From positions 8,990,001 through 9,054,000 of the forward strand of contig JBHGNT010000005.1 of NCBI GenBank assembly GCA_043228905.1: 64,000 nucleotides of DNA. Direction: 5' to 3'. Numbering within the stretch: position 1 is the stretch's first letter; each line of letters begins with the position of its first letter. Shown here piece after piece: positions 1,802 to 30,580 of this stretch. The DNA comes from Azolla caroliniana (Eukaryota; Plantae; Polypodiophyta). The translations under genes were made by a program, and so were the position numbers. The notes under the pieces are model-generated. The model saw nothing but the letters and a program-made list of their open reading frames with translations. It was not told the origin of the DNA and did no database searches.

Positions 1802-2924
1802 TACTCCCCCTCTTTAAAACATTGCACTCTTGCAATGGAAAGTTAGGGAAATTAGTTCTGAGAGTATTTTCGCGTTCCCATGTGGCATCTTTTATTGATT
1901 TATCCATCCATTTTATTTTAAATTCTCGGATTTCTTTAGTACGTAATTTTTTTGTTTTAATATCGAGAATTCTTTCTGGTACATGTGGTTTAGAAGATAA
2001 TTCTTCAGAAGTAACCAGAGTTTCAGTTGTAACTATATTGTCGCCAGAACCTAGAAGTTCTTTTAGATGACTCACATGGAAGACTGGATGAATTCCAACA
2101 CCATCGGGAAGAGCAAGACGGTAGGCTGATGACCCAATGCATTTGAGGACTGTAAAAGGTCCACAAAACCGTGGGGCTAACTTAGCACACTTACCCATAG
2201 ACAATGTCTTAGAATTGTGAGGTACACGTAAAAATACCTTCTGTCCAGGGTTGAATACACGAGGTTGCCTATGATGATCGGCATAAAAACGCGCTCTATC
2301 TTGAGCTGCTTTTATATTATCTCATGCAATATGCAACATATCTTGCATATCCCGAAGAAAGTTTTGCGTACTTCGTAACTCATCATGATGTATATTAACA
2401 TCAATCGGGGCTCGTGGCTGAAAGCCATACATCAACATAAAAGGACTATATCCCGTCGACGTATGCTTGGAGCTGTTATAAGCAAACTCCAAAATTGGGA
2501 GATAACGTTCCCATTTTGTTGGTTTTGCAACAACGTATGCTCGAAGCATGTCCTCAATAATTTGATTTACTCGTTCTGTCTGTCCATCGGATTGAGGATG
2601 ATCCGTGGAGCTCATGCTCAACGTAGTTTCTAACTTCTTAAAGACTTGCGTCCAGAAGTCACTAGTAAACTTTGGATCTTGATCACTCACGATATCCATC
2701 AGTAACCCATAAAAACGAAATAATTCGTCAACGAATTGGTAAGCCAATTCAGGAGCTGTTACCGTGGTTTTAGTAGCAATAAATCTGGCCATTTTAGTTA
2801 GTCGATCAACGACAACCCAGATGGCATCATGACCTTTTTGGGTGCGAGGAAGGCTAACAATAAAATCCATGGATATACTTTCCCACTTATTATTGGGAAT
2901 GTCCAAGGGATGTAAAAGTCCTGC
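1788..2924 (-). pseudogene. Element B integrase core, GPF region and chromodomain
   Basis: WESISMDF, VVVDRLTK, IVSDQD, SDGQTERVN, LAPRFCGPF and PERILD…FKIKW…DATWE; an in-frame stop splits ORFs 2322..2960 and 1788..2204. Confidence 0.93.
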
Positions 2925-3996
2925 GAAGATCTCAAAATGTGAGTTCTTCAAGAAATCCATTACTTATCTTGGACATCTCATAACCGAACGAGGAGTTGAA
3001 ATTGATCCTTATCGCATTGAGAAAATCAAGCTTTGGCCCACTCTTCGGAATATTCGAGAAGTTCGATCATTCCTTGGTTTTGTCAGGTTTTTGCGAAAGA
3101 CTCTTCGTAATTACTCCCAATTGATGACGCCGTTTACTGATCTTTTAAAAGGTCAAACGCGTAAGTCTACAAAACCTATTGTGTGGAATGCTACAGTAGA
3201 CCTCGCCTTTAAGGAACTCAAGGACCTGGTTTGCAAGGCTCCTTCACTTCTTTTACCTGATCCTTCAAAACCTTTTGAGGTTGAAACCGATGCAAGCGAT
3301 TATGCTATAGATGTTGTCTTGTATCAAGATGGTAAACCAATAGCATTCGAGAGTAAGAAACTTGATTCTGCTCAATGTCGGTATACCATTCAAGAAAAGG
3401 AATTATTTGTAGTTATACATGCGCTCAAAACATGGCGCCATTATCTTTATGGAAATCGCTTTGTGGTAACTACGGACCACGGGTCCTTGAAATATTTTTG
3501 TGACCAACAAGACCTGAAAGGTCGTAAGGCACGATGGGCTGATCTCATCCAAGACTTTGATTTTTCCATACAATATCGTAAAGGTTCCATGAACACTGTC
3601 GTTGATGCACTAAGTCGCATCCGTGAAGTTAACACGCTTAGCTTCACTGAAATAACATCAGATCTTTATGATCACCTTCGAGGAAAGTATCCTGATGACA
3701 GTTATTTCGCAAAATATTGGGCAAGAGTTGAGTCTGGAACAAACACCACCACATCCTCGAAGGAATACTTCCACATTGCTAACGGTTTGCTCTACCGTAA
3801 TGGGAAGCTTTGTGTTCCAGATTTACCCGAGGTCAAAAAGAGGATTCTTTTTGAATGCCATGATGCACCCTCAACAGGGCACCCTGGAATACATCGTACA
3901 CTCGTTCTCATCTCCACTCAATTTTATTGGCCTAAGATGCGTCCTGACATACATAGCTATGTGACTAAATATCACCAGTGTCAGGTTAACAAAGCT
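2923..3996 (+). pseudogene. Inverted segment of element B pol: RT end, RNase H and integrase HHCC region
   Basis: KCEFFKKSITYLGH, VETDASD, YTIQEKEL, HDAPSTGHPG…QCQVNKA on the + strand while the rest of B is on the - strand. Confidence 0.92.
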
Positions 3997-4131
3997 ACGG
4001 GCATGACCATTTAATATCCCGTGGTGAGAATTTACCGTAGTATTCTATACACGTGGATAAGTGTGAGGGTTAAACGAGAGTGTAAAGAAGGGGAGGATTA
4101 CTTTTAATCCTCGGGATTGAGACAACCCATC
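3996..4131 (+). repeat. Internal inverted fragment (~135 bp) of element B's own LTR 5' end
   Basis: Reverse complement of ~23757-23892 and ~1663-1798. Confidence 0.92.
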
Positions 4132-5172
4132 AGGTAGTTCACTTGGAAAAACATCATGAAAATCATTTAAGATTTCATCAAGTTGTTGTTGTTCAAAATA
4201 TGTTAATTGAACCGAGACATTATCGATATTATAAACGTGAATGTCCGGATCAAGTACACAATAAAATAGAGTAGAACAAGACAACTCAGATATTGATGGA
4301 CACGAGGAAACAATCGAGAGGGATTGTTTTTTAACACATTGAATAAAATGCGTACTATCGTTCAGTACAAAAGAAATGGAATGGCGAACCCAATCTATAA
4401 ATAAAGAAGAGTTTTTATTATAAAACCAGGGATAACCCAGTATTACATTGGTGGTACAAAGATTCATTACATGGAAGTCTACTTCCTCTATATAAGTATC
4501 AATAGAAATTCCTAATGAATGAATCGCCCCGTTGATGTATTGTACTCTTCCATCAGCAAAGTGCACCGTGTAGGTGTGATCACTTACGGTTGGTTGGATT
4601 CCCCATATCTGAACCAAACGATCATTCACAAAATTGTGTGAGCTTCCCGAATCAAATAAAAATTGTACGGGAGATCCATTGATATACCCGTTTGCACATA
4701 GTAAATCATTGGGACCCAATACATAGTGAGGGAAAGAACATTGACAATTACTTAAATGATGTGTATAGACCTGAAGGACATTAGGAATCTGACCTTTATG
4801 GTCTATAGCTTTAGCTTTGTTGTCGTGCTCTTTCCGTTGGAGCTTTCGACATTGATCTTTTGTATGACCCTTCTTTTTGCAGAATACGCAAAAAGGATGT
4901 TATCGCTTACAATCGTGATCCAGGAATTCGTTGGGTGTCTTGCGTTTCCCAACAAATTGTGATTGCTTAGTCCCAGGCGCTTCGTTGGGTTTGTTGTGGT
5001 CCTTCTTTGAAGTGCGTTGATAGCGAAGAACTATTTCAATGGCCTCTTCGAAGGATTTTGGATCCTTATCGTGCACTATCCAGTGATAGTCCGAATTGGG
5101 GATGCCATTGACAAAACAAGCTATCAACCAATTGTCCCCTTCTAGACCTGATTTTTGGATTTGGGTTCTAGC
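4125..5172 (-). pseudogene. Element B gag C-terminus (zinc knuckle), aspartic protease and start of RT
   Basis: CVFCKKKGHTKDQC knuckle at ~4848-4890, LFDSGSSHNF protease motif, FHDVFPSELPDGL. Confidence 0.88.
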
Positions 5173-5691
5173 TGTTGAGAAGCAAGCTCAACATGGTATG
5201 TGATGCTTATTAGGAAATAAGCTATAGTAGCTATTTAGCTACTTGTGAACATAAAGGAGAAACAACTAATTAGCTACTGACAGCTATTTAGCGACTGATA
5301 GCTAATTAGTTACTAACAGCTATTTAGCGACTGACAGCTATTTAGCTACTGACAGCTATTTAGCGACTGACAGCTAATTAGCTGCATACGTAAGTAACTT
5401 ATTACTTAGGTAAAAAGTAAGAGAGTAGGTAAGTAAGAAAGAAATACAAGAAGTAGAACTCTGAGAGAGAGTGAAGATAGAGAGGTAGAACTCAGAGAGT
5501 GAGAGCAAAAGAGAGAAACAGACGAGAGCAAGTAGAGCTCCGTGGTAATGAAATAGAAGAAGTTTTGGCTGCTACAGAGGTAAGTCTCCTTCCCCCTTCC
5601 CTTCTGTGTTTGAGCACCAAACGATCCAGCACACCACGATCCGTCGCGCACATAAGAAGAGCCCGAGTGCCTTCTTCACGTTTTCTTAACA
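5173..5691 (+). repeat. 5' LTR of copia C (519 bp) with six 18-bp tandem units
   Basis: Unit GC(T/G)ACTGACAGCTA(T/A)TTA; matches 20635-21191. Confidence 0.96.
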
Positions 5692-5830
5692 TGGTATCAT
5701 AGCAGAGTTGCTCATAAAGAAGAGTACAAAAGTGCATAGATCTGAGAAAGGTATTTCTCTATTTGCTGATCTGAATCAGAAAGTTACTTGTTGAAGTAAT
5801 CGTAGCAGAAACCCTTGTTTGGAAGAGATA

Positions 5831-6330
5831 ATGGCTGCAGAGAATGTGGGTCAAATAGTTACAGAGAAACTAGATAAAAACAATTTCCCGGCGTGGAAAT
5901 TTAGAATGACAGATTTCCTAATGGGGAAAGGATACTGGGATTACATTGAAGGAGACCTAGAAGAGGCTCCGGAGATCCCAGAAGAAAATGCCACAGCAGC
6001 ACAGATTAAAGCATTCAAAGACTGGAATCAAGGGGCAAGGAAGGTAATGCATTGGCTCTCACTTAGCATCTCAGATTCGATGCTTGGGCACATACAGGAT
6101 GCTATGCTCCCAAAAGAAGCTTGGGACAATTTGGTAAAACTATTTGCAGTAAACACAAAAGCTAGAAAGCTACATTTGAAGACTGAGCTAAATACCTTAG
6201 AAAAAGGTAAGATGTCAATAAATGAGTATGCCTTGAAAATAAAGAGCATATGTGAATCACTTGCTTCTATCAATGTAAAGATAGAAGATGATGATAAGGT
6301 AGAAATATGCTTAAGAGGCTTAGGACCTCA
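5831..6330 (+). pseudogene. Copia C gag, N-terminal part
   Basis: EKLDKNNFPAWKFRM…PKEAWDNL…CLRGLGP; continues as (Q)FKSFKTSM after 16765. Confidence 0.92.
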
Positions 6331-6646
6331 TATCGACTCGACCAGTCGAGACCGGAGAAAGCGACACCGGTAACAGAACAGAGCCAGGAACGGAGGGAGA
6401 ACAGGAAGAACCCGGACGAAGCGGTGAGGAAGCACCGGCACCACAGAATCAAGCAGAGCCGGAGCAGCAAATTTTTACGGAACAGCCCACCCAACCGGAG
6501 GTCGGAGACCAGGCAGGCAAGGAACAGGAACAGGAGGAAGGAGCACCACTTGACACCATCGAGCAGAGTGTGCTCGATATTTTGGAGGAAGACTGAGGCC
6601 GGGAGTGGATTCGAAGTGCAAGGCACTTTCCCACGGGCGTGCCATG

Positions 6647-7034
6647 TGTTGGCCGGTCAGAAGAGCAAGGACAAGTGGGAAGGCGGAATCGGATCGGATA
6701 ATAGGAAGTAAATAATAGTAGAATTATTATTCGGAGGGACGGATCCGGTACAGTTGTACCGATCCGGATCCGGACCGATTCGGATGTCGGTTGCCTAAGC
6801 GCACCGATTGTAACCTTGCCGGATGCCTATAAAAGGATCCGATGATTTGTAAAGGGGACGAAAAAGTAATACAATAGTAATTATTGCGTGTTTATCTGTA
6901 TCTCGTATTGTTTACCGTCTGTGCTTAATTGTAATCATCTTACACGTGTAACCTAGCATCCAATCCTTACCACCCCTTTGGAGAAGTGTCGGATAGACAC
7001 CTGTGTTGAGGCTAGTCCAGCCAGACAGACAACA
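6647..7034 (+). repeat. Canonical core of D 5' LTR (388 bp, TGTTG…CAACA)
   Basis: 5-bp terminal inverted repeat; start aligns with the true terminus of the related LTR of element E (TGTTACCCGGTCGG); TATAAAAG at ~6828. Confidence 0.8.
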
Positions 7035-7040
7035 CTATTT

Positions 7041-7050
7041 TGGCGACCAC
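7041..7050 (+). promoter_or_regulatory. Primer-binding site of D, probably tRNA-Arg type
   Basis: TGGCGACCAC 6 nt after the LTR end; resembles the complement of a plant tRNA-Arg 3' end as recalled, not searched. Confidence 0.6.
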
Positions 7051-7086
7051 GATTCCTGCAAAGTGCAGAGGACAACCGGGGGATGG

Positions 7087-10000
7087 ATGTCTAGACCAAA
7101 CAACGACCACATCACCGAACGAGGGAGACGATATACCGAACGCGAGCAACGACGGGAAGCCCTGCAGCAAGCCGTCGACGAGATCCGGCGGGATCGGTCA
7201 TTCTCCAAAACTCTTCGGAGAGTCGCAGAAGAAGCACTGCAGTTCCGGGTTCTGCAAATCCCCGACGAAGGCAGTAGCATAACAAGCCTGCAAGAGGCAG
7301 AAACGATACTGCAGACGCTCGCCGCGGGCGACGGGGACTCGGAAGCATTCGCAACACTTGAGGCGGAGTCGGAAAGCGACGGAAGCGTTGCGTCCCGGTA
7401 TAAAAGCAGCCACGACACACCAAACGACCGGGAGGACGAGGGGTCGGAAGACTCAGTAACACCGGCGCCAGAGGAAGAAATAACCCTGGAATTCGGTGAC
7501 CGGCAATCGCCGAGGAAGGCTGACCGGATACCGACAACAACCGCGAAGGAACTGAAGGAGCAGATACCGACAACACCCGCGGAGGAACCAACGGACCGGA
7601 CACCGGCAACACCCGCGGAGGAACCAAAGGTTCTCACACCAACGCCAACAGCGGACAGAGAGCGGAGGAAACAGGAGAGTCAGTTGGACGACACGATGCC
7701 GTACCCATACCCAAAGTATCGGGATGAGGCCGACGCGGAGGCACACGTGTACGCATTCCTCCAAACATGGGAAGCCAACCATATCTCCCAAAGACTGACG
7801 GAGCCCGAAGCCGAACGATCCAAAGTCGCCGAATTCAGCATAACCTTAGAAGGACCGGCGGCCCAATGGCACGCAAAGCACTTACCGGGCAGCTTTGCCA
7901 CATTCGATGCCTTGAAGGCCAGATTCCTCAGGCTTTTTTACAGAGAATTTGAGCAAAGGGAATTGGTCGGGCAGTTCTACACCACCCGGCAGGAAGAGAA
8001 CGAGACTGTGCCACAATTCATCATTCGGTTTCAGACCCTGCACAGCCAACTGACAAGAGCACCACCCGAAGACGAAGCCAAAGCAGTCTTTTTGGCCGCA
8101 CTGAAAGAGTCACTTCGAACAATGTGCGGAGTCCTTGATTTCCAAACCAGCACAATGGACCAAGTTATTGATCGGGTTTTAGAAATGGACAAGACTAGCC
8201 CCTTCTTGTCGATGGGGATGTTACACCGGGCACTCCCAAAGGAGGAAGACCTGAGGTTCCGACAGGCCTTACAATGTACAACATGCCTAAATTCGGGGCA
8301 CTCAACAGTAGACTGCACCCTGCGGACACAATGTGTGATCTGCAACTCTCGAGCCCATACAACGGACCGATGCGAATATAACCTATTAAATCGGCAGGCA
8401 GCACCGGTTCGACACATAGAACCGCGCAATCAGAACCCGGACGAGGATCGATTCCGGAGAGACGACCGCTACCAACGCGAACGTGGTAACAGATACGCTG
8501 ATAAAAGACGCGACAACTATGACCGAGAGGAGAGACGCAGAGATAGCTACCCCCGGGACCGGTACGACAGAGACGAATCCCCGGAATACGACCGACGCAG
8601 AGAAGAGAGGCAACAAGGATACGCTGATAGAAGACGCGACAACTATGACCGAGAGGAGAGACGCAGAGATAGCTACCCCCGGGACCGGTACGACCGAGAC
8701 GAATCCCCGGAATACGACCGACGCAGAGAAGAGAGGCGACAAGGGAACCGAAATTTTCGACGGAATCAGAAGCGTGGATTTTTCCGAAGAGAGGAACATC
8801 GGGAGGCAGCAAGGAATGACAACCCGGTATCGGTACCGGATAACCGAAAAACCGAAGACGACCGCCACAGCATACCCACCCTCCAAACCGGGGACAAAGG
8901 AGAAACGAGCAACAGTCACAAGGTGTACTGTTATTACTGCCGTAAGGAAGGCCATTATAGTAACCAATGCCCAAGCAAAACCAATGACAAGCAGCCGGAA
9001 GTCAACATGGTTACAGCCGAAATAACAGAACTACAGCAGGTCACAACCCGGTCAAAGGGAAAGACTGCCGAGTGGGAAGCCCAGGAGGCAATCAGAAAAC
9101 AAGCGGCACAATGGATCAAGGAGGCCAATGAACAGAATGCGGCAGAAGTAAGAGACCAAAATATGCCAAAAGACGAAGAAATCATACAGCCAAGAGAAAA
9201 CCCGACGTGGCAAGCGCTACAGGACTGTCAAATCATGCTGTCGTTAGCACGACTACTACAGTTAGTGCCACGATTTACGGCAGACCTACAGGCATCCGTC
9301 GGCAAACCGAAGCTGACGCCAGCACCGGCATTCTTCTCCAACCCGGAGGAAGGACCAGCGGTGGTCGATACAAGTAGCCCGGCGATCACGGCAATCGTGA
9401 AAGGAAAGGAAATTGCTGGAACGATTATTGACGGAGGCTCCGGGGTAAATGTCATCAGCCAATAGACATGCAACGACCTGGGCATCCGGGAATGGGAACC
9501 ATGCCCTTCTGGTTATGCATGGCGGATACGAGCTCAGTCCGACCGACCGGGCTTATCCGGGATTTGGAAGTAACGATCGGAGGCCACGTATTCCGGATAT
9601 CGGCCGTGGTGCTGCAGCTGAATGTACAAGGCGCGTACCCCCTACTGCTAGGAAGACCATGGCTGCAAACGGCGCATATCAAGCAGAACTGGCAAAAGAA
9701 CATGATCACATTCCGGCGAGGGAAAACAAAGGTACGAGTAACGACACAACCACGGGTGATCACCAGTAAGGAAGCAACTCCATTATATGCGGAAAGCATT
9801 AACATGTTGGAGGGATTACCGGACGAGGAAGTCGAGCGGTACCTCGAGGAACACCCACGAATCGTCCCACTATTTGAGGTGGATATCACGGCGGCAGTAG
9901 AACCGTACATTACGACGCCGGATGAACCGGACCAAGCGGCGATCCGGGAACTGCGACAAGCGCAGGAATCCCTAGAGAGGGAAATGACGATATCCCAGAG

Positions 10001-13000
10001 GGTAAAAGCATCCCAACTCGAGGAGGTGGACCTCGGCACAGCAGACAAGCCCCGACCGGTAAATGTTGCAAAGGAATTGCCGAAGGAAGAAAAGAAGGCA
10101 ATGGTAGCATTATTAACAGACTTCAAGGATGTGTTCGCGTGGTCGTACGAAGACATGCGAGGGCTGGACCCCCAGCTCTATCAGCACCAAATTCACCTAA
10201 GTACGGACGCGAAACCGATCGCTCAACGCAGGTACCGGATGAATCCGAATTATGCGGCAAAGGTGAAGGAGGAAATTGATAAGCTCCTCCGGGTTGGATT
10301 TATCCGACCGGTCAAGCAGGCAACTTGGCTGAGTCCGATAGTGGTGGTCCCGAAAAAGAACGGAAAAATCCGGGTATGCGTGGACTACCGAAAACTAAAT
10401 GCCGCAACAGTGACCAATGCGTTTCCACTACCATTTACGGATGGGGTGTTAGATGCGGTAGCCGGCCACGAAGTTTACAGCTTCCTGGATGGATTTAGCG
10501 GCTACAACCAAATACGAATGAACCCGGCCGACCAAGAGAAGACAGCGTTCGTGACGGAATGGGGAGTGTTCGTCGCGGTCGTGATGATGTTCGGACTAAA
10601 GACGGCTCCAGCGACCTTTCAAAGGATAATAATGGAAATTTTCGGGGAATATATCCCCGGTTTTATGCAGGTCTTCCTTGACGATTTCGCGGTCTACAGC
10701 CGGCACGGAGAGCATCTCGATCACCTCCGGCTGTGCTTGGAGAAGTGCCGCGAGTACCGATTGAGCCTGAACCCGGCCAAGTGCGTCTTTGGAGTGGCAA
10801 GCGGCAACTTGCTAGGGCACGTGGTGAGTAAGGAAGGAATCGCGGTAGATCCGGATAAAGTCAAGGCGATTCTCGAGGCACCAGCACCAAGTAACGCAAA
10901 GGCTTTAAGCCGGTTCCTGGGCCAAATAAGGTGGCATAGCCGGATGATACGGCACCTCGCGGACTTCGCTACACCGTTACATACCGCCGTACATAGGGTA
11001 CCCTTCCTATGGGCGGAGACGGAGGAGGAATCCTACAAAGCGTTGAAGGTTATGCTGTCGCAAGCCCCGGTGGTGCAACTACCGGATTGGAGTAAAAGCT
11101 TTCACGTCTTCGTCGACGCGTCGGACGTAGCAATCGGCAGCGTTCTGATGCAACTCACGGAGCCGAAATGGTACCGACCGGTGTACTACGCAAGCCGGAA
11201 ACTCTCAAAAGCCGAACGGAATTACTCTACGACGGAACGCGAGGCATTGGGAATGGTGTATAATGTCACAAAGTACAGGCACTATCTGCTCGGAAGGAAG
11301 TTTTCCTTCCATGTCGACCATTCGGCACTACTCTACCTGGTCTCGAAGGCATCCCTGACGGGAAAAATTGCACGGTGGACACTGCTGCTACAGGAATTTG
11401 AATTCGACATTTTCCACCGACCCGGGGCGCAGCATGCAGTAGCGGACTACCTAAGCAGACTCGAATCCGGAGAAGCAGGGGACGGCGTCCAGGATGAGTT
11501 TCCCGACGCCGAATTGTTCCGGATCACGACGAAACCGGCAACGGATACAACGGTAGCCGATGAAGACACATGGCTAACTGAGATGCATCAGTTCCTGAGC
11601 ACCGGAATTCCCCCGGAGAACATGGACCGCGATGAAAGGAAAAGGGTAGCAGTAAGAAGTAAACATTTCTGCTTGGTTGGAGACACCCTCTATCACAAGG
11701 GGGCAGATGGTATCTAGAGACGAGCAATGCGGAGCGATGAGAAGGATCTAATCCTCAGGGAAGCCCACTGTGGAATTGCCGGCGGGCATTATGCCGGCGA
11801 CGCAACCGCTCGGAAAATATGGCAGAGCGGACTGTGGTGGCCGACCACCCTAAAAGATGCCGTGAAGTATAGCAGAGAATGCGATTTGTGTCAACGACTG
11901 GGCCAACCCACAGAGCAGGCCCGGATGCCACACCACCCGGTCTTGCCCTTAGAACCGTTTCAAAAGTGGGGGTTGGACTTTGTCGGTCCCTTCAAACCAC
12001 CGGCAATGCGAACCGGAAATCGGTATGTCATAGTGGCGACCGACTATTGCACCAAATGGGTAGAAGCAAAGGCCTTACGGGACAACACGGCCGCGTCCAC
12101 GGCAAAGTTTCTGTACGAGTGCATATGGTGCCGGTATGGATGCCCGATCGAGCTTATAAGTGACCAAGGAGGACATTTTCTCGGGCAGGTAGTAGAAAGC
12201 CTGACGTCATTTTACGCGGTGGTGCATAAAAAGAGTACTCCCTACTACCCTCAAGCCAATGGACTAGCGGAATCAACGAACAAAACTTTGCAGAACATCC
12301 TACGAAAAATCGTCAACGAGAACCGGACCGACTGGGATACGAAATTGCAAAGCACGCTATGGGCGTACCGAACAACGTACAAAACCAGCATCCGGACAAC
12401 CCCGTTCCGACTAGCATTCGGGTTAGAAGCGGTCATGCCGGTAGAGTTCCAGATCCCAAGCTTACGGATTCAGGTGAAGGAGCGCTTAAGTGAGAACGAG
12501 TCCGAACGAATCCGGCTGGCGACGTTGTTGGAATTAGAAGAAAACCGAATAGCCAGCTTACTACAACTCGAACTGGAGCAAAGGAGGAGAAAAGCTTTCG
12601 TGGACCGACACCGGCGTGGCAATGAAAAGGAGTTCGAAGTCGGGAAACCGGTGCTACTATTCCAGACACGGATGGGGAACATGCCGGGAAAGTTGCGGTT
12701 TCGATGGACCGGACCGTTCTGGATCACCAAGGAGTACAATGGGTCGTATCAGCTCGACACGTTGTCTGGAGATGTCATCGGCAAGTGGGCAAATGGATTT
12801 CGGCTAAAGCCGTATAAGGGAAATATGCCAGCCAACCCGTTCAAGCGAAACCCGGAAATCCGGCAAGATGAGGAACCGACACCGACAGACGCTGCTGAAG
12901 ATAGTCGGACCGAGGAAGAACCGACACCAATACTGACGAAGACTATCCCGGAAAACCGACAGAAGGATCCGGTATCCACACGAACCGACCCGAACAAATC

Positions 13001-13019
13001 GGGGGGGACCAGCAAATGA
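7087..13019 (+). pseudogene. Element D gag-pol with about three lesions (TAG 9463, frameshift ~9505, TAG 11715)
   Basis: Gag capsid region, three CCHC knuckles, IIDGGS protease, CVDYRKLN/FLDGFSGYNQI/FLDDF RT, RNase H, H-H-C-C and WGLDF…ISDQG…NGLAE integrase, WTGPF. Confidence 0.95.
8492..8743 (+). repeat. In-frame 126-bp tandem duplication in D gag (42-aa R/D/E-rich unit)
   Basis: YAD(K/R)RRDNYDREERRRDSYPRDRYDRDESPEYDRRREER(Q/R)QG occurs twice. Confidence 0.95.
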
Positions 13020-13428
13020 CGTGGTCCAAACAAAGAAAAAAAAAAAAAAAAAAGATGTGGGCAAAATCGACGCGAATCATAGTAATGATGGGGAGATCAC
13101 AAAAGGTGGGAGCGCCACCATGCAACGAAGAGGCGCCATGCATTAAAGAAGGACGTGCACGTACTTGCTATTTAAAGCATGGAACGTGGGCACTCACACG
13201 CGGCAAACAAGAAAGGACATACTAATTATGGCGAGAGAGGAACATGCGCGAGAAACGAAAAAGGGCGGCTCGAGGCACAACCCACTATATAAGACACAGG
13301 CCGGCGAAGGGCTCACTTTTTACGAATTTTCCTACATACAGGCGCAGAAGCACAGAAGAGCGACCCGACGCACAGAGCACACACAGCGCAATCCCGAACA
13401 ACAGGCAGCAGAAGAAGAATTCGAAACA

Positions 13429-16327
13429 ATGGTACTGTCAGAAGAGGCACGCCAATGGATGAGGGAGAACGGGTTAAAAGGATTGTTGCGGATCGCCGAC
13501 GCTCCACCACACGCAGAACCAGAGCAGGCGGCAGCATCGATTGATTTATCAGAAGTCACGGAAGGAGCGGTGCAGGCGCTCACGGGGATAAAAGCAGGAG
13601 GACTTCAAACAATCGAAAACCCTTCAAGTGAAATCCTGTTCGAATATTTCGGGGAGTACTCTATCAGCAGCAAGGCGTATCGAACGCAGGGTGGAGAGAA
13701 CCTGTTGTTCGGAGAAGTGGCCCGCGCCATGATGGAATACGGATTCGTGAATCCCCGTCCCCCGGCCATAGCCAAGTACCGGGCAGCGTTCTTAATAGCA
13801 GCGTACGAAGGCTTACAAATAGAGTGGCTCCATTTCATAACCGAAGGATTGAAGGAGGCCATCAAAAATCCTGTGGAAGGAAAAAAGCCATGGGCCGGGA
13901 TAGCACAATGGCTAACGGTGTTAGTCCCACCGGTGCTCCCCATCACACAAAAGAAAAGAGGTCGGCAGGAGACGACGCCGAAAAAGGTCACAAAGCGCCG
14001 ACAGATCTTGGAGAAACACACCCCCGGATGGACCCAGCAAGAAGCAGAACAGCAGGGGGAAGGACCATCCCGACAGCAACAGGAACCGGCAACAAAGGCA
14101 AAACCGGCATGGTAAAGGCAAAGGGAAATCGGCCGAGGAGGAACCGGTAGCGCGCAAACCAATCCATATAACGCTGCGACGGCCGGAACCGGAACCAGAG
14201 GTCTTTATACAAAAGGTCCGTCTGGTAACCGCACCGGAGGAGGAAGCTGAAACAGAAGACTCATCCGAACCACTGGTAAGACTCCCAGCAAGCAAAGGTC
14301 GGGAGAAACGGGCGAAAGGACCGGCTCCACCAGTGGACAGAACTCAGCAGAGGGCGCAAGGACCATCTCCAGTAGCCGAGGCGGAAACAGCACCGAAACC
14401 CGTACCGAGGGAAGCAGCACCGACACCAGTTGGGCCGAACTTCAGAGAACCGGTTATCCCAGAGAAGAAGAAGGAACAAGCGTCGGAGCCGGAGCCAGAG
14501 AAGAGGCCAGAAAAACAGCCTGAGTTAAGTGAGCAAGGCCACCCCGACACAGGAAGAACAAAGCCACAATGGCTGAGATGGCTTTCGGAGCAGTTATTGG
14601 GAGTAGCGGACCAGTTAGAAAAAGAAGAAACGTGTAGGCAACAGCTGACGCATACAACAACTCAGGAGTTGGTCGCGCTCCGAACACAGATCGAGGAAAT
14701 GCAAGGGGAGCTGTTGCATGCAAGGGAAGGAATTCAACAAGCACAAGTTGTCACCGAGCCGGTCGGGACAACAAGGAAGCAACCAGAACCGGAACCGGTA
14801 GCCTTGCAAACCGGCCCTGAGACCGAAAAAATAATAGAAACCTTACGAGAGGAGTTAAAAGCTCAGGAGGCATTAAGGGAAAGAGAAAGGGAGCAGCGGA
14901 AAGTAGTGGAGGACGACAGACGAAAAATGGAAGAAGGCCTCCGGAAAGGTCGAGCCGCTAATGACCAACTGCAAGAAGAAAAAGAGAAGCTGCAAAAGGA
15001 GAAGGACAGACTACGTCGACATGCCGAGCAAGAGATAGAACGACTGCAGGAAGAACTCCGACAACAGAAGGACCAGGACGATCGGTTAAGAGCTCAGGCA
15101 AACCGACGCCTGAAGCAGAAGTCGGAGGACTTCGACCGTCTCTACCGAGATCACAAGCAGGCCGAGTCGGACAACAAGAAACGGACAGCAGACTACGACC
15201 GGCAAATAGAGAAGCTGAAAGAACAGCTCAAAGAGACCCGATTAGACCTGGCTAAGGCAATGGATGAGGTCAGTGCCAACAAGGAAGCATTGTCGGCGGA
15301 AATAGCCCAAGCAACGGAGAGAAGGAAGGAATTAGAGGCGCTAAGGCGGGAAAAGCTGGACCTGACCAAGATCAGGAATGAAGAAAAGGAAAATTCGACC
15401 TTCACGATCAGCAAACTGCAAAGTACCTATGAAAAGCAGAAAGCGGATTACGAGGCCCAGGCTCAGATAATGGCCGACATTATAAAACGAGCAAGGAAGG
15501 AAAAACAGGAAGCTTATGCGCATGCTAAGGCAGGGGTTGACCGGATCAAGCTCATCATGTCAGGATGGAGTACCCGAGCTAAGGCAAGCATCAACGAAAG
15601 TACGGAAAAGCTATGGAAGGAGTGGTCACAACAGGCAGCCGAGCTGCAGACACTCCGAGCGGATGCCGAGAATCGGAGGAAGACCGGTGACAAGTTCTAC
15701 AAGATGGATGAGGAATGTATCGTCGCCATTCGGGAAGAATTGTCGGAAGATTTCTACACTTTAGCGGAAGAACATCTCAAAGAAATCCGAGGGTTGGTAG
15801 AGAGGTTGGATGACGGGCAGCTCGCAACTTAGTTGGAGTTGGAGAGATACGAGCAGGACCGGTTACGACAGGAAGCTAAGGGAAGAACGACGCCAATCAC
15901 TATTGGTGAGGGAACGCGACCGGCTGAAGATGAACCAACCGACACCGAACAACCCCGACGAGGAATACCCGAAGACGAACTTGAAGAAGAGCAGGAGCGG
16001 ACCGATGCCGGAGAAGAAGAAGAGCTGAGACCGGAAGACACCAGAGCAGAGGAAGGAGGCATATCGAGTCGACCAGTCGAGACCGGAGAAAGCGACACCG
16101 GTAACAGAACAAAGCCAGGAACGGAGGGAGAACAGGAAGAACCCGGACGAAGCGGTGAGGAAGCACCGGCACCACAGAATCAAGCAGAGCCGGAGCAGCA
16201 AATTTTTACGGAACAGCCCACCCAACCGGAGGTCGGAGACCAAGCAGGCAAGGAACAGGAACAGGAGGAAGGAGCACCACTTGACACCATCGAGCAGAGT
16301 GTGCTCGATATTTTGGAGGAAGACTGA
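13429..16327 (+). pseudogene. Element D extra 3' ORF (~960 codons): globular N-terminal domain, P/E linker, long coiled coil, acidic tail; one frameshift (~14105) and one stop (15830)
   Basis: ORFs 13165..14115, 14333..15832 and 15833..16327 join up; homologous to A 26753-28353 (LSEEARQWMRENGLKGLL vs LSEAAKKWLRQHGLEGFL; YFGEYS..SKAYRTQGGE). Confidence 0.82.
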
Positions 16328-16377
16328 GGCCGGGAGTGGATTCGAAGTGCAAGGCACTTTCCCACGGGCGTGCCATG

Positions 16378-16765
16378 TGTTGGCCGGTCAGAAGAGCAAG
16401 GACAAGTGGGAAGGCGGAATCGGATCGGATAATAGGAAGTAAATAATAGTAGAATTATTATTCAGAGGGACGGATCCGGTACAGTTGTACCGATCCGGAT
16501 CCGAACCGATTCGGATGTCGGTTGCCTAAGCGCACCGATTGTAACCTTGCCGGATGCCTATAAAAGGATCCGATGATTTGTAAAGGGGACGAAAAAGTAA
16601 TACAATAGTAATTATTGCGTGTTTATCTGTATCTCGTATTGTTTACCGTCTGTGCTTAATTGTAATCATCTTACGCGTGTAACCTAGCATCCAATCCTTA
16701 CCACCCCTTTGGAGAAGTGTCGGATAGACACCTGTGTTGAGGCTAGTCCGGCCAGACAGACAACA
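16378..16765 (+). repeat. Canonical core of D 3' LTR
   Basis: TGTTGG…CAACA, copy of 6647-7034. Confidence 0.85.
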
Positions 16766-19700
16766 AATTCAAAAGCTTTAAAACCTCTATGCTTACAAGG
16801 GATAGTATCCCAAGCTTTCCAGATCTGGTTTCAATGCTTGTAGTAGAAGAAAGGAATCAGATGGATGATGTAAATAAAGGAAATCTTGAGAATGAGGGGC
16901 AAGCCCTACATAATAGTGCTGGAAGAGGCCGAGGAAGAGGCCATGGAAGATTTGGCTCAGCAAGAACCAACAATAATGGTTATCAAGGAAGAGGACAACA
17001 AAGCATTAGAGGAAGAAACAACAACAAAGGCAGGGGGAGCAACCAAGGTAGAGGTAAGCAAACATATGTAAATGATGATGGTTGTTGGTATTGTGGAAAA
17101 CCTGGCCACACACAAGCTGAATGTTACAAGAAGCAAAATGATGAGCAAAGAGGAAAGAGACAGCAGAATAACTATGCCCAAACTAGTGAAGATTGTGAAA
17201 AAGATGGTGCATTTGTGGTACAACATGAGATAGCAGCAGTGGCTGAAAGCTCACAGAAATGTAATGAAGAGTTTATATGGTATGTAGACTCGGGGGCATC
17301 TAACCATATGACTGGACATGCAAACTGGTTTGAAAGGTTGAGAGAACCAGATATTCCTGGCTATGTACAGACGGGTGATAATAGTACTCACCAAATAGAA
17401 CATGTTGGAGATATCCCATTGTGGGAAGAAAAAGGAAAGACTAAGTATATGTTGAATGTAATGCATGTTCCAAATCTTGCTAAGAATCTGATTTCTGTTG
17501 GACAGATAGTAGAGCAAGGTATGCAAGTAAAGTTTAAGCAAAGTGGATGCTATATAGAAAAGAATGGGAAGCTCATTGCAAAAGGAAAACGACAAGGAAG
17601 AATGTTTATTTTGGATGTTGACATGCCTAGACAGATTTCAGCTATGTTTGCAAATGGAATGAGTGTAGTCTCAGATGTGGAAATGGGGCATAAAAGGATT
17701 GGCCACATAAGTATGCAAACCCTAAAGAATATGTTGAGAAAAGATGCAGTGGATGGACTGCCAAAACTGAAAAATTGTGAAATGGGAAAGATGTGTGAAG
17801 CATGTCAATATGGAAAGCAAAATAGGTTGTCATTCCCTCATGAAAGACATGTACGTAAAAATTTGTTGGATTTGGTACATACGGATGTATGGGGACCAAC
17901 TAAGAATGCATCTATCGGTGGCTGCAGATTTTATGTAACTTTTATTGATGATTGCTCAAGGAAAACATGGGTGTATTTCATGAAAGAGAAAAGTGAAGTG
18001 TTTGAATGTTTTCGTAAGTTTAAATGCATGGTAGAAAAGCAGGCAGGTACAAGAATAAAATGTTTAAGATCTGATGGAGGAGGAGAGTATTTCTCCAATG
18101 AATTTTCTGATTTTCTATGCAATCAGGGAATACGAAGACAGTTCACATGTAGATATACTCCACTGCAAAATGGAGTTGCTGAGAGGAAAAACAGAACATT
18201 GGTGAACATTGCAAGGGCTTTGATGACAGAGAAGAATATGCCATTGTACTATTGGGCAGAAGCTGTAAATACAGCAAATTATATTCTAAATAGATGTATA
18301 ACATCGGGAGTACATGAAACAACTCTTGAAGAGTGTTTCTATGGAAGGAAACCTAGTTTAGAACACTTAAAAGTGTTTGGATGCCTTGCATATGCACATC
18401 TGCCTGCAGAAGTAAGAAGTAAGCTGGATCCAAAAGCAGAAAAATGTATTTTTGTTGGCTATTCAGAAGAACAAAAAGGGTATCGATGCTATAACCCTAT
18501 AACAAAGAAGATTGTGACAAGTAGGGATGTAATCTTAGATGAGTTAGCCAGCTGGTATAGTCCAAAACAGAATCCAGAGACTGATGAAGACAATGAGATT
18601 GAAGACAAAGACAAATCTGAAAATGTAGAAGACTGCCACAGAGATGGAAGCAAGGTTGGACAGCAAAGTCCAACATCAACAGAATGTTCTGGACCATCAA
18701 AAAGCTCAGATGGTAAATCTGATTCGAATTCTTGGAGTGGAAAAAGTGGAGGACACAAAAAATGTGATGATAAAAAAGGAAAACAGAAAATGCCAGAGTA
18801 TGAAATGTTGGATGACTTGTCTAAAAACATGGAAGATGAGGATTCAGATGTGTCATTGGATGATCTTCTTGGCATAAGAGGATTGAAAATCCCTGGTATG
18901 GAAAAAGCATTGAAGGATGCAAATCAGAAACTGAGAAGATCAGATAGAGAGAAAAAAATTGTTGAAAGATTTGGTTATGATACATATATGGCTATGCATT
19001 ATGCATATATGTCTAAGGTGGTACAGATCCCTGATCCAAGTAGTTTTGATGAGGCTAAAACTGAGAAGAAATGGGTGGATGCAATGCAAGAAGAGATTGA
19101 TGCATTGGTTGAAAACAGAACATGGGATTTGGTGAAGTTACCAAAAGAAAAAAATGTGGTAGGTTGCAAATGGGTCTACAAGACAAAGCATGATTCCAGT
19201 GGGAATATAAGTAGACATAAAGCAAGATTGGTTGCAAAGGGATATGCCCAAATGCAAGGAATTGATTATGATGAGACATTTGCACCGGTTGCAAAGATGG
19301 CAACATTGAGGACATTACTGGCTGTAGGTGCAGCCAGAAGATGGTTTCTTCATCATATGGATGTAAAAAATGCCTTCTTACATGGTAACTTGGAAGAAGA
19401 AGTGTATATGTGTCAACCACTAGGTTTTGAAGATAGGAAGCATTCAGATTATGTATGTAAGCTGAAAAAGGCTCTCTATGGACTAAAACAGGCACCAAGA
19501 ACATGGCACAGAGAACTTTCAGATTATCTGAAAAAACTTGACTTCAAAATGTCAAAGGCTGATTCATCATTGTATGTTAAAAGGGAAGATGATTGTATTG
19601 TTGTGATTCTGATTTATGTTGATGATCTCATCATTGGAGGTGATTTCATGGATGAGATAAGTAAGCTGAAAAGAAATTTGGAAATGAAATTTCATATGAA

Positions 19701-20526
19701 AGATTTGGGAGATCTGAGATATTTTTTGGGTATTGAAATCATCAGATCTGAAAGTGGTATATGTGTGTTGCAAAGACAATATGCAACAACTATGTTGAAA
19801 AAGTATGGTATGCTTGGATGCAAACCTATTGGAGTACCACTAGATAAAAACTGCAAATTGAGGGCTGATTTGGGAGCCAAAATAGAAGATGTAAACATGT
19901 ACAGGTCTATGGTGGGCAACCTTATTTATTTGACCATAACAAGACCTGATTTGAGTTATGCAGTTGGATTAGTTAGCCAATTTATGCAACAACCAACAAA
20001 GCCGCATTTGGATTGCATTAGAAGAATTCTGAGGTATATAAAAGCTACTCAGAACTATGGATTGTTTTACAGGGCTGATTTGGACATAAATCTAGAAGGA
20101 TATACAGATGCTGATTGGGTTGGAAGCCAAACAGATAGAAGATCCACAAGTGGATATATCTTTACATTGGGAAGTGCAAGTATTTCATGGAGTAGCAAGA
20201 AACAGGCTACTGTTGCATTGTCTAGTACTGAAGCTAAGTACAGAGGAGCTGCCATAGCCACTTATGAAGAGGTATGGATCAGAAGATTGCTTGCTGATTT
20301 GGGAGAGTTTATAGATGGTACTGTCACAATCTGGTGTAACAATATGAGCAGCATTCAGTTTGCAAAAAACCCAGTGTTCCATGCAAGAACAAAGCACATT
20401 GAAGTGCATTATCACTTTGTTAGAGAAAAAGTGATTGAAGGAGAAGTTGATCTGGTGTATGTGAATACAAATCAGCAGGTTGCTGATATTCTCACAAAGG
20501 GATTGAGTGTGGAAAAGCATACATAG
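16766..20526 (+). CDS. Copia C gag C-terminus and pol (PR, INT, RT, RNase H): open frame of ~1250 codons, separated from its N-terminus by D
   Basis: [81 protein letters not shown]. Confidence 0.95.
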
Positions 20527-20634
20527 TTTCGGAACATGATGGGAGTTGTAGACACTGATATGATGGCTGAAAAGCATCATGGAAAAGAAGTGGTAGATAA
20601 CCCCAAGAAAGGATAAGTTGAGCTTGAGGGGGAG

Positions 20635-21191
20635 TGTTGAGAAGCAAGCTCAACATGGTATGTGATGCTTATTAGGAAATAAGCTATAGTAGCTATTTAG
20701 CTACTTGTGAACATAAAGGAGAAACAACTAATTAGCTACTGACAGCTAATTAGCTACTGACAGCTATTTAGCGACTGACAGCTAATTAGCTACTAACAGC
20801 TATTTAGCGACTGACAGCTATTTAGCTACTGACAGCTATTTAGCGACTGACAGCTATTTAGCTACTGACAGCTAATTAGCTGCATACGTAAGTAACTTAT
20901 TACTTAGGTAAAAAGTAAGAGAGTAAGTAAGTAAGAAAGAAATACAGGAAGTAGAACTCTGAGAGAGAGAGTGAAGATAGAGAGATAGAACTCAGAGAGT
21001 GAGAGCAAAAGAGAGAAACAGACGAGAGCAAGTAGAGCTCCGTGGTAATGAAATAGAAGAAGTTTTGGCTGCTACAGAGGTAAGTCTCCTTCCCCCTTCC
21101 CTTCTGTGTTTGAGCACCAAACGATCCAGCACACCACGATCCGCCGCGCACATAAGAAGAGCCCGAGTGCCTTCTTCACGTTTTCTTAACA
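20635..21191 (+). repeat. 3' LTR of copia C (557 bp) with eight 18-bp tandem units
   Basis: Copy of 5173-5691 plus two units and one extra GA. Confidence 0.96.
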
Positions 21192-23895: not shown

Positions 23896-25379
23896 GGTAT
23901 GCTGGCCCGATGGACGTTACTATTACAAGAATTTGAGTTCGAGATATTCCACCGACTCGGCATACAACATGCGGTAGCAGACTATTTGAGCCGGTTTGAT
24001 TCCGGCGAAACCTGTGACGGCGACCCAAACGAGTTCCCGGATGCAGAGCTATTTAGAGTCACAACTGAAAAGACAACGGATGGTACGGTCGCAGAGGAAG
24101 ACAAGTGGCTCACCAACATGCACCAATTTCTGAGCACCGGCTTACCTCCGGAGGAGATGAACAAAGACGAGAGGAAACGCTTAGTTGTTCAAAGCTGGCA
24201 CTTATGTCTATTACAGGACACACTATACCACAAAGGTGTAGATGGCATATGGCGGCATGCAGTGCGCAGCGACAAAAAGGACATAATATTGCGGGAAGCA
24301 CACTGCAGAGTGGCTGGAGGACATTGTGCCGAAGACGCTACGGCAAGGAAAATATGGTAGAGTGGACTATGGTGGCCAACAACATTCAAGGATGCAGTCC
24401 GGTACGCTAAAGAATGTGACCTATGTCAGCGAATGGGCCAACTAACCGAACAAGCCAGGATGCCTCACCAACCCATGCTACCGTTAGAACCATTTCAAAA
24501 ATGGGGGTTGTATTTTGTTTGTCCATTCAAACCACAAGCAATGAGAACCAGCAACCGGTACGTGATTGTCGCTACGGATTATTGCACAAAATGGGTGGAA
24601 GCCAAAGCACTACGCGCTAACACCGCGGCATCCATGGAAAAAAAATTATATGAATACATCTGGTGCCGGTATGGATGTCCGATAGAGCTAATAAGTGACC
24701 AAGGTGGCCACTTCTTAGGGCAAGTGGTGGAAAGTTTGACGACATTCTATACGATGGTGCATAAACGGAGCACTCCCTATTATCCGTAAGCCAACGGATT
24801 AGCTGAGTCAACAAATAAAACATTATAGAACATCCTTCGAAAAATCGTCAATGAGAACCGGACAGATTGGGATACAAAGCTGCACAATGTACTCTGGGCC
24901 TATCGAACAGCATATAAGACAAGTATCTGCACAACACCGTTTCGCCTAGCATTCGGATTGGAAGCAGTGATGTCGATCGAGTTCCAGGTACCGAGTTTAC
25001 AAATACAGATTTGGGAACACCTAAATGAGAAGGAATCGGAAGCGATCCGGTTAGCCACGCTATGCAAATTGGAAGAACACTGGCTAGCCAGCGTCATGCA
25101 CCTAGTGTCAGGAACTACACGCTCTCGACGAATCAACGCTCGGCCACAACCGAGTCTAAGATCAAACACAGAAAACAGATAATGAACGCACGACACAAAG
25201 GAGAGAAGAGTACACAGGATGTTTAACGTAGAAAACCCTGAGAGGGAAAAACCACGAGAGTCCACAGACTCCAAACTATCACTATATCACAATGATTACA
25301 ACAGTGAGCTCACGGAGGCAACGACCTCGCGCTCATGATCTTCGCCACAGGCGGCGGTTACAACAGAGGCAACGACCTC

Positions 25380-25435
<56 letters not shown>

Positions 25436-26361
25436 TACATTGTTACGCGCTCTCTGATCTAGCGCCAACAAGAATGACAACAACTTACTTTACTAAGTTT
25501 GCCCTAAGTCATATTTATACTAATATGAATTTTCGGCTATTTACAAATATAGTCCCGATGGACTCTCAGAAACATATTTACGAATATGTCCCTTCATCCG
25601 GTGAGCACTCCTCATCGGGCCTGCATCATCCGGCGCTTGCCGGGCACACGTCATCCGGTTCACCGGGTCTTCCATTGTCGGGTACTCCGCATCCGGTTCT
25701 CATCGGGTCTTCACCATCTGGCTCTTGCCGGGTACTCGTCATCCGGTTCTCACTGGGTCTTCCGTTGCCGGGTACTTGTCATTCGGTTCTCACCGGGGCT
25801 TCCGTAGCTGGGTTTCGGTCTCGGCCGAGTTTGCTCATCAGTATTGTTCTTCTCACTTCCCATCCGGAGGGACCTATTTCCTAACACCTAGAACTAGAGC
25901 AGCGACGAAGGAAAGCGTTCGTGGATCGTCACCGAAAAGGGAACGAAAAGATGTTCGAAATCGGTAAGTCGGTACTAGTATTCCAGACTTGGATGGGTAA
26001 GATGTCGGGGAAGCTACGGTTTCGATGGACCGGACCATACTGGATCACGCGTGAGTTCAACGGTTCCTACCAGTTAGGGACACTCGCCGGCGAGGTTCTG
26101 GGTAAATGGGTCAATGGGTTCCAACTCAAACCATACAATGGACCCATGCCAAGAAACCCATTTGAACAAGTAAAGGCCGACACAGAACCAGACACGGGTA
26201 AGTCGGAAGAGACGGCAACACGTTTAGGAATTGGCAAGCGCGACGCCGGTAAGAGTGAGCACGAGCCGGCAAACGGCAAGAACGACGCGACGGCAAGCAG
26301 TCCAGTGGCCGGCAAGTCCCACAATTCGGATAGGGGTCCAGTGGGACTGGATGTGAATTAA
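23896..26361 (+). pseudogene. Element A RNase H end and integrase (several stops), split by a solo LTR
   Basis: ARWTLLLQEFEF, ILREAHC, PFQKWGL, ISDQGGHF, LRFRWTGPY. Confidence 0.92.
25106..25886 (-). mobile_element. Solo LTR (781 bp) with TSD CCTAG
   Basis: TGTCAGG…CCTAACA, CCTAG at 25101-25105 and 25887-25891; internal ~41-bp imperfect tandem repeats and (CT)n; related to 29981-30580 in the opposite orientation. Confidence 0.93.
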
Positions 26362-28353: not shown

Positions 28354-29980
28354 GATTTCTTCTTTGAATTTTGCTGCATAATTCAGGTTCATCTGGTAGC
28401 GTCGTTGCGCTACCGGTTTGGCGTCTTTACTCAGATGTATCTTGTGTTGATACAACTGAGGATCGAGTCCCCGCATGTCCTCATAGGACCAGGCGAACAC
28501 ATCGCGAAATTCTTTTAGGAGTGTGATCATTGTCGTTTTGTTCTCCGGGGTCATTTCCTTGGCGATGTGAACCGGTCTTGCGTCCTCTGTGGTACCTAGG
28601 TTTACCTCTTCTAGTTGGGATGCTTTTACGCGCTGCGACACTACCATTTCTCTTTCCAGTGCCTCTTGTCCTTGCCGTAACTCCCGGATCGCTTCTTTAT
28701 CCGTTTCCTCGTCGGTCCCATCCGGTTGCAGTATGTACGGTGATACTGCTTCGGTTACATCAATTTCGAACAGAGGTACGATCTTCGGATTTTCCTATAA
28801 GTATTGATCGACCTCTTCGTCCGCCAATCCTTCCAGCATGTTGACACATTCCGCATATAGCAGCGTCAATTCCTTGTCGGTACCGAACCGTGGTTGAGTC
28901 GGTACTCACACTTTCGCTTTTCCACGCCGGAACGTAATTATATTCTTCCTCCAGTTTTGCTTGATGTGTGTTGTTTTTAACCAAGGGCGTCCCAACAATA
29001 GTGGGTAAGCTCCTTGAGCCTGTAGCCGGAGAACTACTGCCAAAATGCGAAATGCGTGACCCTCGATGGTCACTTCCAGATCACGTATTAATCCGGTCGG
29101 CTGTACTGAGCTGGTGTCCGCCATCCGAAGCCAAAACGGGCATGGTTCCTAGTCATGGATTCCTAGAGTGTTACACGTTTGGAGGCTGATCACGTTCATG
29201 CCGGATCCTCCATCAATAATCATGTCGGGTAGCTCTTTTCCTTTCACGATGGCTGTGATTGTCGGACTGCTCGTGTCTACTACCGCCGGTCCTTCCTCCG
29301 GATTTGAAAAGAATGCCGGAGCCAGTGGTGTGTCGTCTACCGTCATTCCTGTCTTCAGTCCTTCCGTGAAGCGTGGTACCAGTTGCAATAGCCGGCCTAA
29401 CGGCAGTGTTATTTGGCATTCTCGTAACGCCTGCCATGTTGGGTTTTTAGGCTGCCCTATGCCGATGAGCTCTTCGGCATTCTCCTTTTGTTGTTCAAGC
29501 TCTGCTACATTCCACTTGTTTGCCTTCTTCACCCATTCGGTTACCTGCTTCCGAATGGCTTCTTGAGTTTCCCACTCCGTGGCTTTGCCTTTTGATCTTG
29601 TAGTGACTTGTTGTAAGTCCGCGACTTCCACGACTACCATGTTCATCGTTGGTCGCTTGTCGTAGCTCTTCGTCGAACATTGGTTACTATAGTGGCCTTC
29701 TTGCCGGCAATAATAGCAGTACGTCTTCTGGGTGTTACTGGATTCGGCGTTTGTGCCCGCACCCGGTTGAGGTCCTGTGGTAAGTGCTTGGTTTTGGTCC
29801 GGTTGGCTGCTGGGAGCACCCTTTTCCGATTCCCGTGGATGACCCCCCTTTTTGTTGAAATGACTTTTCTTGTTGAAATTATTTTTGTTTCGGTAACCTT
29901 GATGGGGTTGGTCGTCATACTTGCCATAGTCGTCCCGTCGTTGGTTGTAACCAGGGGAGTGATCCCGATTGTATCTCTCG

Positions 29981-30580
29981 TGTTAGGAAACAGGTCCCTC
30001 CGGATGGGAAGTGAGAAGAACCGTGTTGATGAGCAACTTGGCCGAGGCCGAATCCGGATGTGGCGTACCCGGCAACGGAAGACCCGGTGAGAACCGGATG
30101 TGGAGTACCTGGCAACGGAAGACCCGGGTAGAACCGGATGTTGCAGGCCCGGTGAGAACCTCTCATCGGATGGAAGGGACATATATGTAAATATGTTCCA
30201 GAAAGCCCACTAGGGCTATATTTGTAAATAGCCCGAAAGTCATATTAGTATAAATATGACCTAGGGCAAACTTAATAGAAGATGATAGAGTTATTTGTGG
30301 GTGTAACTCCTGTACAGTGCGTAAGAGAGGTAGAGAGAGCGATATACAGAGATTGTTGCCTCTGTTGTAACCGCCTGGTGGCGAAGCGAGGGAGCACGAG
30401 GTCGTTGCCTTTGTGCCCCATTGTTGTAATCTTGATATAGTGATATTTTGCAGTTTGAGGGCTGCCGTGGTTTTTCCCATATTTGGGTTTTCCACGTTAA
30501 CATCCTGTGCACTCTCTTCTTTACTGTTTCGTACGTAGATACATCGCTCCACATCCCTGTTTTTTGTGACTGATCCGACA
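29981..30580 (+). mobile_element. Solo LTR (600 bp) with TSD TCTCG, inside E gag
   Basis: TGTTAGG…CCGACA, TCTCG at 29976-29980 and 30581-30585; TATAAAT at ~30249. Confidence 0.93.

Follow-up and report, generated by a model that had tools for sequence, protein, structure and literature searches.

Element D, a Ty3/gypsy long terminal repeat (LTR) retrotransposon nested in the gag gene of the copia element C, lies in a 64,000-nt stretch of the Azolla caroliniana genome (GenBank assembly GCA_043228905.1, contig JBHGNT010000005.1, positions 8,990,001 to 9,054,000, forward strand; this whole stretch is referred to as the window). As judged from the sequence comparisons described below, the lineage of D carries a conserved sense copy of the 3' end of tRNA-Arg in place of the polypurine tract (PPT). 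We slightly favour a mechanism in which host tRNA-Arg primes the plus strand at this block. The combined reading, that the copy lets a host tRNA prime the second strand of the D lineage and that the left end of D, lacking a target-site duplication (TSD), is a one-off integration product, is in our judgment evenly balanced. The feature of interest is the PPT-less, tRNA-end lineage rather than the left end of D.

The sequence preceding the LTR of D had been described in the first-pass annotation as a damaged PPT. It exists as quoted and is the same in both copies, but it is conserved across the lineage, not damaged. Evidence on the family comes from contigs of sequencing runs and from metagenome contigs; an exact search with 22 nt of the block (16354–16375) retrieved 54 metagenome contigs (loci, numbered with the prefix L) from 14 assemblies. 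All 54 loci have an LTR-like TG start 2–5 nt past the motif. Thirty-seven of them are D-like, with the TG placed two bases after CCA in 36, and the remaining 17 constitute a second group, in which a spacer of 4–5 nt leads to a presumed LTR start. None of the 54 relatives has a PPT, the longest purine run inside the block being 4–5 nt in every locus; copia element C and chromovirus element B in the window have normal PPTs. Outside the search pattern, positions 16335–16353 are conserved at 0.83–1.0, as compared with 0.28–0.72 upstream (one column, 0.94), measured over 36 distinct contexts from 52 loci. Where at least 140 nt of downstream sequence is available (36 loci), a D-like LTR follows in 21 (71–91%) and a sequence with no likeness to the D LTR in 15. 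Coding similarity to D is scarce in the second group (1/17), yet both the tRNA-like block and the same primer-binding site (PBS) are kept; the group may retain the two primer sites in the way non-autonomous elements keep the cis sites they need. Four loci of this group (L022, L034, L050, and L025) have unrelated LTRs, internal regions of 2–3 kb, tandem or collapsed units, and both primer sites, and L034 has two tRNA-Pro calls as well.

The block is laid out as the 5' strand and loop of a T-arm, a 14-nt insert forming a hairpin, the 3' strand of the T-arm, an acceptor strand, and CCA, with the insert coming just after what we take to be the position of the usual m1A58. The motif itself was called neither by Rfam nor by ARAGORN, and it occurs just twice within the window. 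A search pattern built on this layout gave 17 matches (one viral and 16 prokaryote), 15 of which were identified by ARAGORN as tRNA genes, all for Arg (2 TCT and 13 TCG); CCA, absent from the search pattern, comes next in 14 of the 17. When compared with 16 Arabidopsis tRNA 5' ends taken from the supplement of PMC5389709, the acceptor strand of the motif pairs at 7/7 positions with Arg-TCT, two Arg-CCT, and Gly-TCC, and at 3–6/7 with the other 12. Cofolding with non-plant tRNAs under RNA parameters left the hairpin looped out at a three-way junction and paired 26–27 of the 29 tRNA bases. A published PBS primer, in the available part of its report, ends in the same 9 nt as the motif (PMC7798630). 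Read on the minus strand, the block amounts to a second PBS, whose primer would point into the unique 3' region (U3). No tRNA-Arg gene was found in the window or in the 54 loci, and no long-range complement of the last 9–10 nt of the motif within D.

At the 5' end, D has a normal PBS, the 10-mer of which occurs nine times in eight of the 54 loci. The tRNA end implied by this PBS pairs at 6/7 positions with the 5' ends of Arabidopsis Arg-TCG and Arg-ACG, and Val-AAC also reaches 6/7. The gap between the CA of the LTR and the PBS is 5–6 nt lineage-wide (window 7035–7040; L004, L014, L022, L025, L034, L037, and L052), which is longer than usual, suggesting that processing of the U5 (unique 5' region) end may differ in the D lineage. 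Relative E (32120–32190) lacks the PBS 10-mer, but retains the short hairpin-like sequence following it.

D carries gag, reverse transcriptase (RT), RNase H, and integrase, together with extra forward open reading frames (ORFs), for which no Pfam family was matched. Its earlier described anatomy, with terminal repeats of about 704 bp and a canonical LTR of 388 bp, was confirmed. The repeat (6329–7034, equal to 16060–16765) measures 706 bp including a 2-bp CA common to the host, or 704 bp without it, and is composed of 318 bp of ORF tail plus the 388-bp LTR. The two copies differ by seven substitutions, the extension and the LTR being equally diverged (3/318 versus 4/388). The LTR runs from TGTTG at 6647/16378 to CAACA at 7034/16765, and in alignment its start coincides with the ~32611 terminus of relative E, which adjoins copia RT sequence. 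Also as described before, the extension is the tail of the extra ORF starting right after a purine tract; these 316 bp (16062–16377) directly follow AGAGCAGAGGAAGGAGGCA (16043–16061), within which the pure purine run is 12 nt long (16048–16059). We disfavour a reversed orientation of D, in which the minus strand would give the genome RNA, because the plus strand carries the ORFs and a TATA-like box and the other end has no PPT either. The features of D and its host are as follows (+, forward strand).

5795–6329, +: 5' part of the host copia C gag up to the insertion point (Pfam Retrotran_gag_2); the empty-site contigs end at 6329.
6329–6330, +: CA microhomology of 2 bp, common to host and element, at the left junction.
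6331–6646, +: left-end extension, a copy of 16062–16377 that includes the tRNA-like block at 6604–6644 (3 mismatches in 318 bp).
6647–7034, +: 5' LTR of 388 bp, TGTTG...CAACA, with a TATA-like TATAAAA at 6828.
7041–7050, +: 10-nt PBS, separated from the LTR by 6 nt and probably for tRNA-Arg; the 10-mer recurs in relatives.
6997–9465, +: gag frame (Retrotrans_gag, zinc knuckle).
9432–13019, +: pol with RT, RNase H, and integrase; a single in-frame stop at 11715–11717; no chromodomain or extra RNase H match.
13147–16327, +: extra forward ORFs that include a charged region and an acidic tail; a single in-frame stop at 15830–15832; kept in relatives.
16048–16059, +: 12-nt purine run and candidate fallback primer for the plus strand; the left-end homology begins at its 3' edge.
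16335–16375, +: putative conserved sense copy of the tRNA-Arg 3' end (T-arm, inserted hairpin, acceptor strand, and CCA) at the PPT position.
16376–16377, +: 2-nt spacer from CCA to the LTR; TG lies two bases past CCA in 36 of 37 D-like loci.
16378–16765, +: 3' LTR of 388 bp, its canonical CA end joined to the host.
16766–20526, +: host copia C gag-pol resuming past the insertion.

In the proposed mechanism of plus-strand priming, RNase H would first clear the genome RNA, tRNA-Arg would then anneal to the minus-strand DNA over ~26–27 nt with the hairpin looped out, and the annealed tRNA would be extended through the 2-nt spacer into U3. We put forward more tentatively, and at less than even weight, the fuller proposal that this high-copy lineage primes both strands from host tRNA-Arg, the PPT having been abandoned, and that D records a fallback in which RT used an internal purine run and produced a cDNA joinable by integrase at one end only. 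Several points weigh against tRNA priming. The 7/7 pairing with the acceptor strand is shared by Gly-TCC, and the motif is without one tRNA base. The tRNAs compared are bacterial or phage molecules fetched by a motif-derived pattern, with plant tRNA 3' sequence not among them, and the cofold is partly circular. A duplex scan found a second site in D that is nearly equal (−31.3 versus −33.4 kcal/mol), and the 54 loci all come from 14 assemblies, possibly of one campaign. The motif also folds on itself, which is compatible with self-priming, whereby the tRNA-like hairpin of the genome RNA, left intact by RNase H and cleaved behind its CCA, would itself serve as the plus-strand primer, with no second tRNA involved. 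We consider this distinctly the less likely route. It accords with the prediction that the block folds into a stem enclosing a further hairpin (−12 to −17 kcal/mol), with the least conserved position in 16335–16353 being a hairpin loop base, and with the change in the second group that lengthens the outer stem; it leaves unexplained, however, why the tRNA-Arg identity, T-loop letters included, is kept across unrelated LTR families. Moreover, the change in D at 16340 weakens the self-stem, yet would form a wobble pair against the tRNA, and the local fold of D is no better than that of shuffled sequences; the GGCAC/GTGCC fold pointed out in the first-pass annotation is not the predicted structure (z, −0.3).

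The first-pass annotation had instead supposed that a mutation damaged the PPT of D, forcing priming to an upstream tract and opening a route to longer LTRs. At 16335 and 16340, D is indeed unlike each of the 36 contexts from relatives, so that its site may be weaker. The absence of a PPT from every relative stands against a loss in D, as does the D letter at 16340 being the majority by depth in three of four runs of this very abundant family, which argues that the D subfamily was amplified with it. Recurrence was not seen among 12 loose ends in the four runs, and nothing supports heritable growth of the LTR or capture of coding sequence by this route. On these comparisons, the damaged-PPT version appears largely refuted, and we give it hardly any weight.

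With regard to the left end of D, the reported lack of a TSD holds, none of 4–6 bp being present at either the canonical or the extended end; 5-bp TSDs are found in all four other insertions tested. In the accessible portion of a survey of somatic insertions, TSDs accompany 119 of 122 resolved events and TSD-less events are rare (PMC12312487). The empty site was recovered, among the loose ends listed, as contigs in two of the four runs that join host 6300–6329 straight to 16766. At the D insertion, the host has lost no bases and duplicated 0–1, and the junction uses the CA common to host and element. Recombination of two separate insertions was rejected as an origin of the junction, the host flanks being contiguous. 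The left end probably arose at integration, since the host break coincides exactly with the joining point of the normal right end. The earlier idea of one-ended integration after priming at an alternative tract therefore stands as to formation at integration with one aberrant end; its other part, priming at the purine run, is plausible only, since repair copying predicts the same structure. If the purine run was used, the plus strand of the D cDNA would begin there, 318 nt upstream, setting the left end; integrase would join just the normal right end, and host repair would close the left end on the 2 bp of microhomology. We rate the chance that priming at this 12-nt run set the left end as about equal to the chance that it did not. 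A junction at the 3' edge of a purine run is expected at 1.5% of positions in the last kilobase and at 3 of 76 CA sites (4 of 76 for runs of at least 10 nt). This purine-edge criterion was chosen post hoc, which weakens it, and a nearer 12-nt purine run (16263–16274) went unused. Likewise unfavourable is that no other copy starting at 16060 was seen, none of the 12 loose ends in the four runs having a foreign flank there, and that the left junction of D itself was not seen in these runs, whose low-coverage contigs can drop single copies.

The competing account with the most in its favour, although we regard it as rather improbable, is repair copying, in which a break opened the left junction while integration was under way or shortly afterwards, the free end copied 318 nt past the homology with the 3' LTR, and rejoining took place on CA, the purine run being coincidental. 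The host break, the microhomology, and the equal divergence are all expected under it as well. Homology ends short of the contig start in 16 of the 37 D-like loci, 112–3639 nt from the motif, although some of these ends reflect nothing more than short partner contigs; the distances at which relatives leave internal sequence are scattered and show no purine-edge pattern, which speaks for repair copying. It does not account for a junction lying precisely where a 12-nt purine run has its 3' edge, or for a CA that mirrors the normal 2-nt spacer. Even less probable is a tandem arrangement generated by unequal crossing-over, from which a later deletion took the first unit except for 318 nt. Relatives L022 and L034 do show tandem or collapsed arrangements, and complex elements with a shared LTR are known from the available text of PMC1950507; the deletion, however, must have begun inside a 4–5 bp TSD without removing any host base, and two further events would be needed within ~1% divergence. 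An assembly error, which would explain why the junction was not seen in the four runs, is highly improbable, as the two copies differ at seven sites with derived changes on each side, and a collapsed repeat would not yield that. Comparison with the family contigs places derived letters at 16112, 16464, and 16504 in the right copy and at 6337 in the left; the derived changes in both copies indicate a real duplication about as old as the LTRs. Of the related copies, L008 (1093) comes closest to the point used in D: it joins unrelated DNA ~325 nt before the motif, ~45 nt from that point, on a contig that ends 12 nt past the motif, and may represent an extended left end. Progeny of D would be expected to revert to a 388-bp LTR and not to inherit the extension, because the latter lies upstream of the TATA-like box/promoter and the normal priming site is intact. 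Aberrant-end integration of Rous sarcoma virus is a further parallel to the left end of D.

Comparisons with known systems draw on the accessible portions of the papers cited. For LTR retroelements in general, the second strand is taken to be primed from a PPT (PMC6894440, PMC10886601). Canonical PPT-primed synthesis resembles the situation in D in that the priming site lies directly before the 3' LTR and fixes the U3 edge, whereas the site in D is purine-poor and matches a tRNA 3' end (PMC6894440, PMC10886601). The Helenus TRIMs (miniature retrotransposons with terminal repeats; TRIMp3; Kojima 2024, PMC10886601) likewise have a tRNA-derived sequence in an LTR element. In Helenus, the tRNA-like sequence is located inside the LTR as a Pol III promoter, the PPT is kept, and the element is below 1 kb, whereas the tRNA-like block of D terminates in CCA and stands beyond the LTR, in place of the PPT. 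The left end of D is comparable to half-site or aberrant-end retroviral integration, with one good end and the other joined with short homology, and to 3'-PPT mutants of human immunodeficiency virus type 1, in which an altered plus-strand primer alters the cDNA ends (PMC11054761, PMC11042837). In contrast to these cases, D occurs naturally in the germline and its insertion deleted no host sequence; integrase-independent insertions of Tf1 use PBS/PPT homology, whereas the right end of D is a clean CA joint (PMC11054761, PMC11042837). Complex LTR insertions formed by template switching (Sabot and Schulman 2007, PMC1950507) are also abnormal cDNA structures fixed in a plant genome, but have three LTRs with TSDs kept, unlike the two repeats and missing TSD of D. 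No earlier account of a tRNA end occupying the PPT position was found in the accessible parts of the literature searched, subscription journals being largely outside it.

An abundant lineage with a tRNA-end site replacing the PPT would, if true, represent a second solution to plus-strand priming. The way in which the U3 edge is fixed by RNase H and integrase would become open to experiment, and D-type elements would depend on a tRNA a second time. Annotation tools that demand a PPT could then miss the D lineage. The odd left end of D, taken alone, is a minor accident, and would gain value only if such ends were commoner here than in PPT-bearing neighbours.

As for its placement among plant retrotransposons, D has the Ty3/gypsy order, with RT-RNase H ahead of integrase, and direct LTRs with TG...CA in the 388-bp core, its left terminus running beyond this core. 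No Chromo match was found in D by Pfam at E up to 1, as expected of a non-chromovirus. The non-chromovirus Ty3/gypsy elements of plants (OTA: Athila, Tat, and Ogre; Phygy and Selgy; Neumann et al. 2019, PMC6317226) share with D the order Gag-RT-RH-INT, the lack of a chromodomain, an extra ORF, and a length of ~10 kb, and an Arg PBS is found in Ogre and TatIII (PMC6317226). Tat elements (TatIII, Ogre, and Retand) differ in having an additional, archaeal-type RNase H, for which D has no Pfam match (PMC6317226). D also differs from Athila, in which the dominant PBS is for Asp, Asn, or Ala, its own PBS fitting Arg best, though over just 10 nt; and from Phygy and Selgy, which have a Trp or Ala PBS, are short, and lack the extra ORF (PMC6317226). 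Unlike OTA elements, D is without a PPT, and the text of PMC6317226, as far as accessible, mentions no tRNA-like sequence at the PPT position. By its sequence features, D thus fits the non-chromovirus group, but apparently fails the defining features of Tat, Athila, Phygy, and Selgy. Viral contigs scanned with the D integrase and with the motif gave no matches, and an RT alignment scan gave 66 distant loci with 24–42% identity.

The window is plant DNA dense with nested LTR elements. Positions 1–28357 contain four nesting levels, namely a D relative, chromovirus B (1347–23895), copia C (5173–21191), and D, from the outermost inward, and the LTR divergence down the nest (3.5%, 1.2%, and 1.0%) follows the order expected of nesting. 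Inside B, an RNase H–integrase stretch (2833–4135) lies on the other strand from the sequences next to it, and an inverted copy of the B LTR end, 140 bp long (3996–4135), delimits it; the stretch looks like an autointegration-type inversion. Two opposite-strand D relatives are both truncated at one junction (28354–28357), one in the extra ORF and the other, E, in RT. Two related solo-LTR-like insertions (25106–25886 and 29981–30623) have 5-bp TSDs, the second with two possible right ends. A pentatricopeptide repeat (PPR) protein frame, whose best named matches (lycophytes and ferns, 25–38% identity) point to a probable spore-bearing host, lies on the minus strand at 53510–55582.

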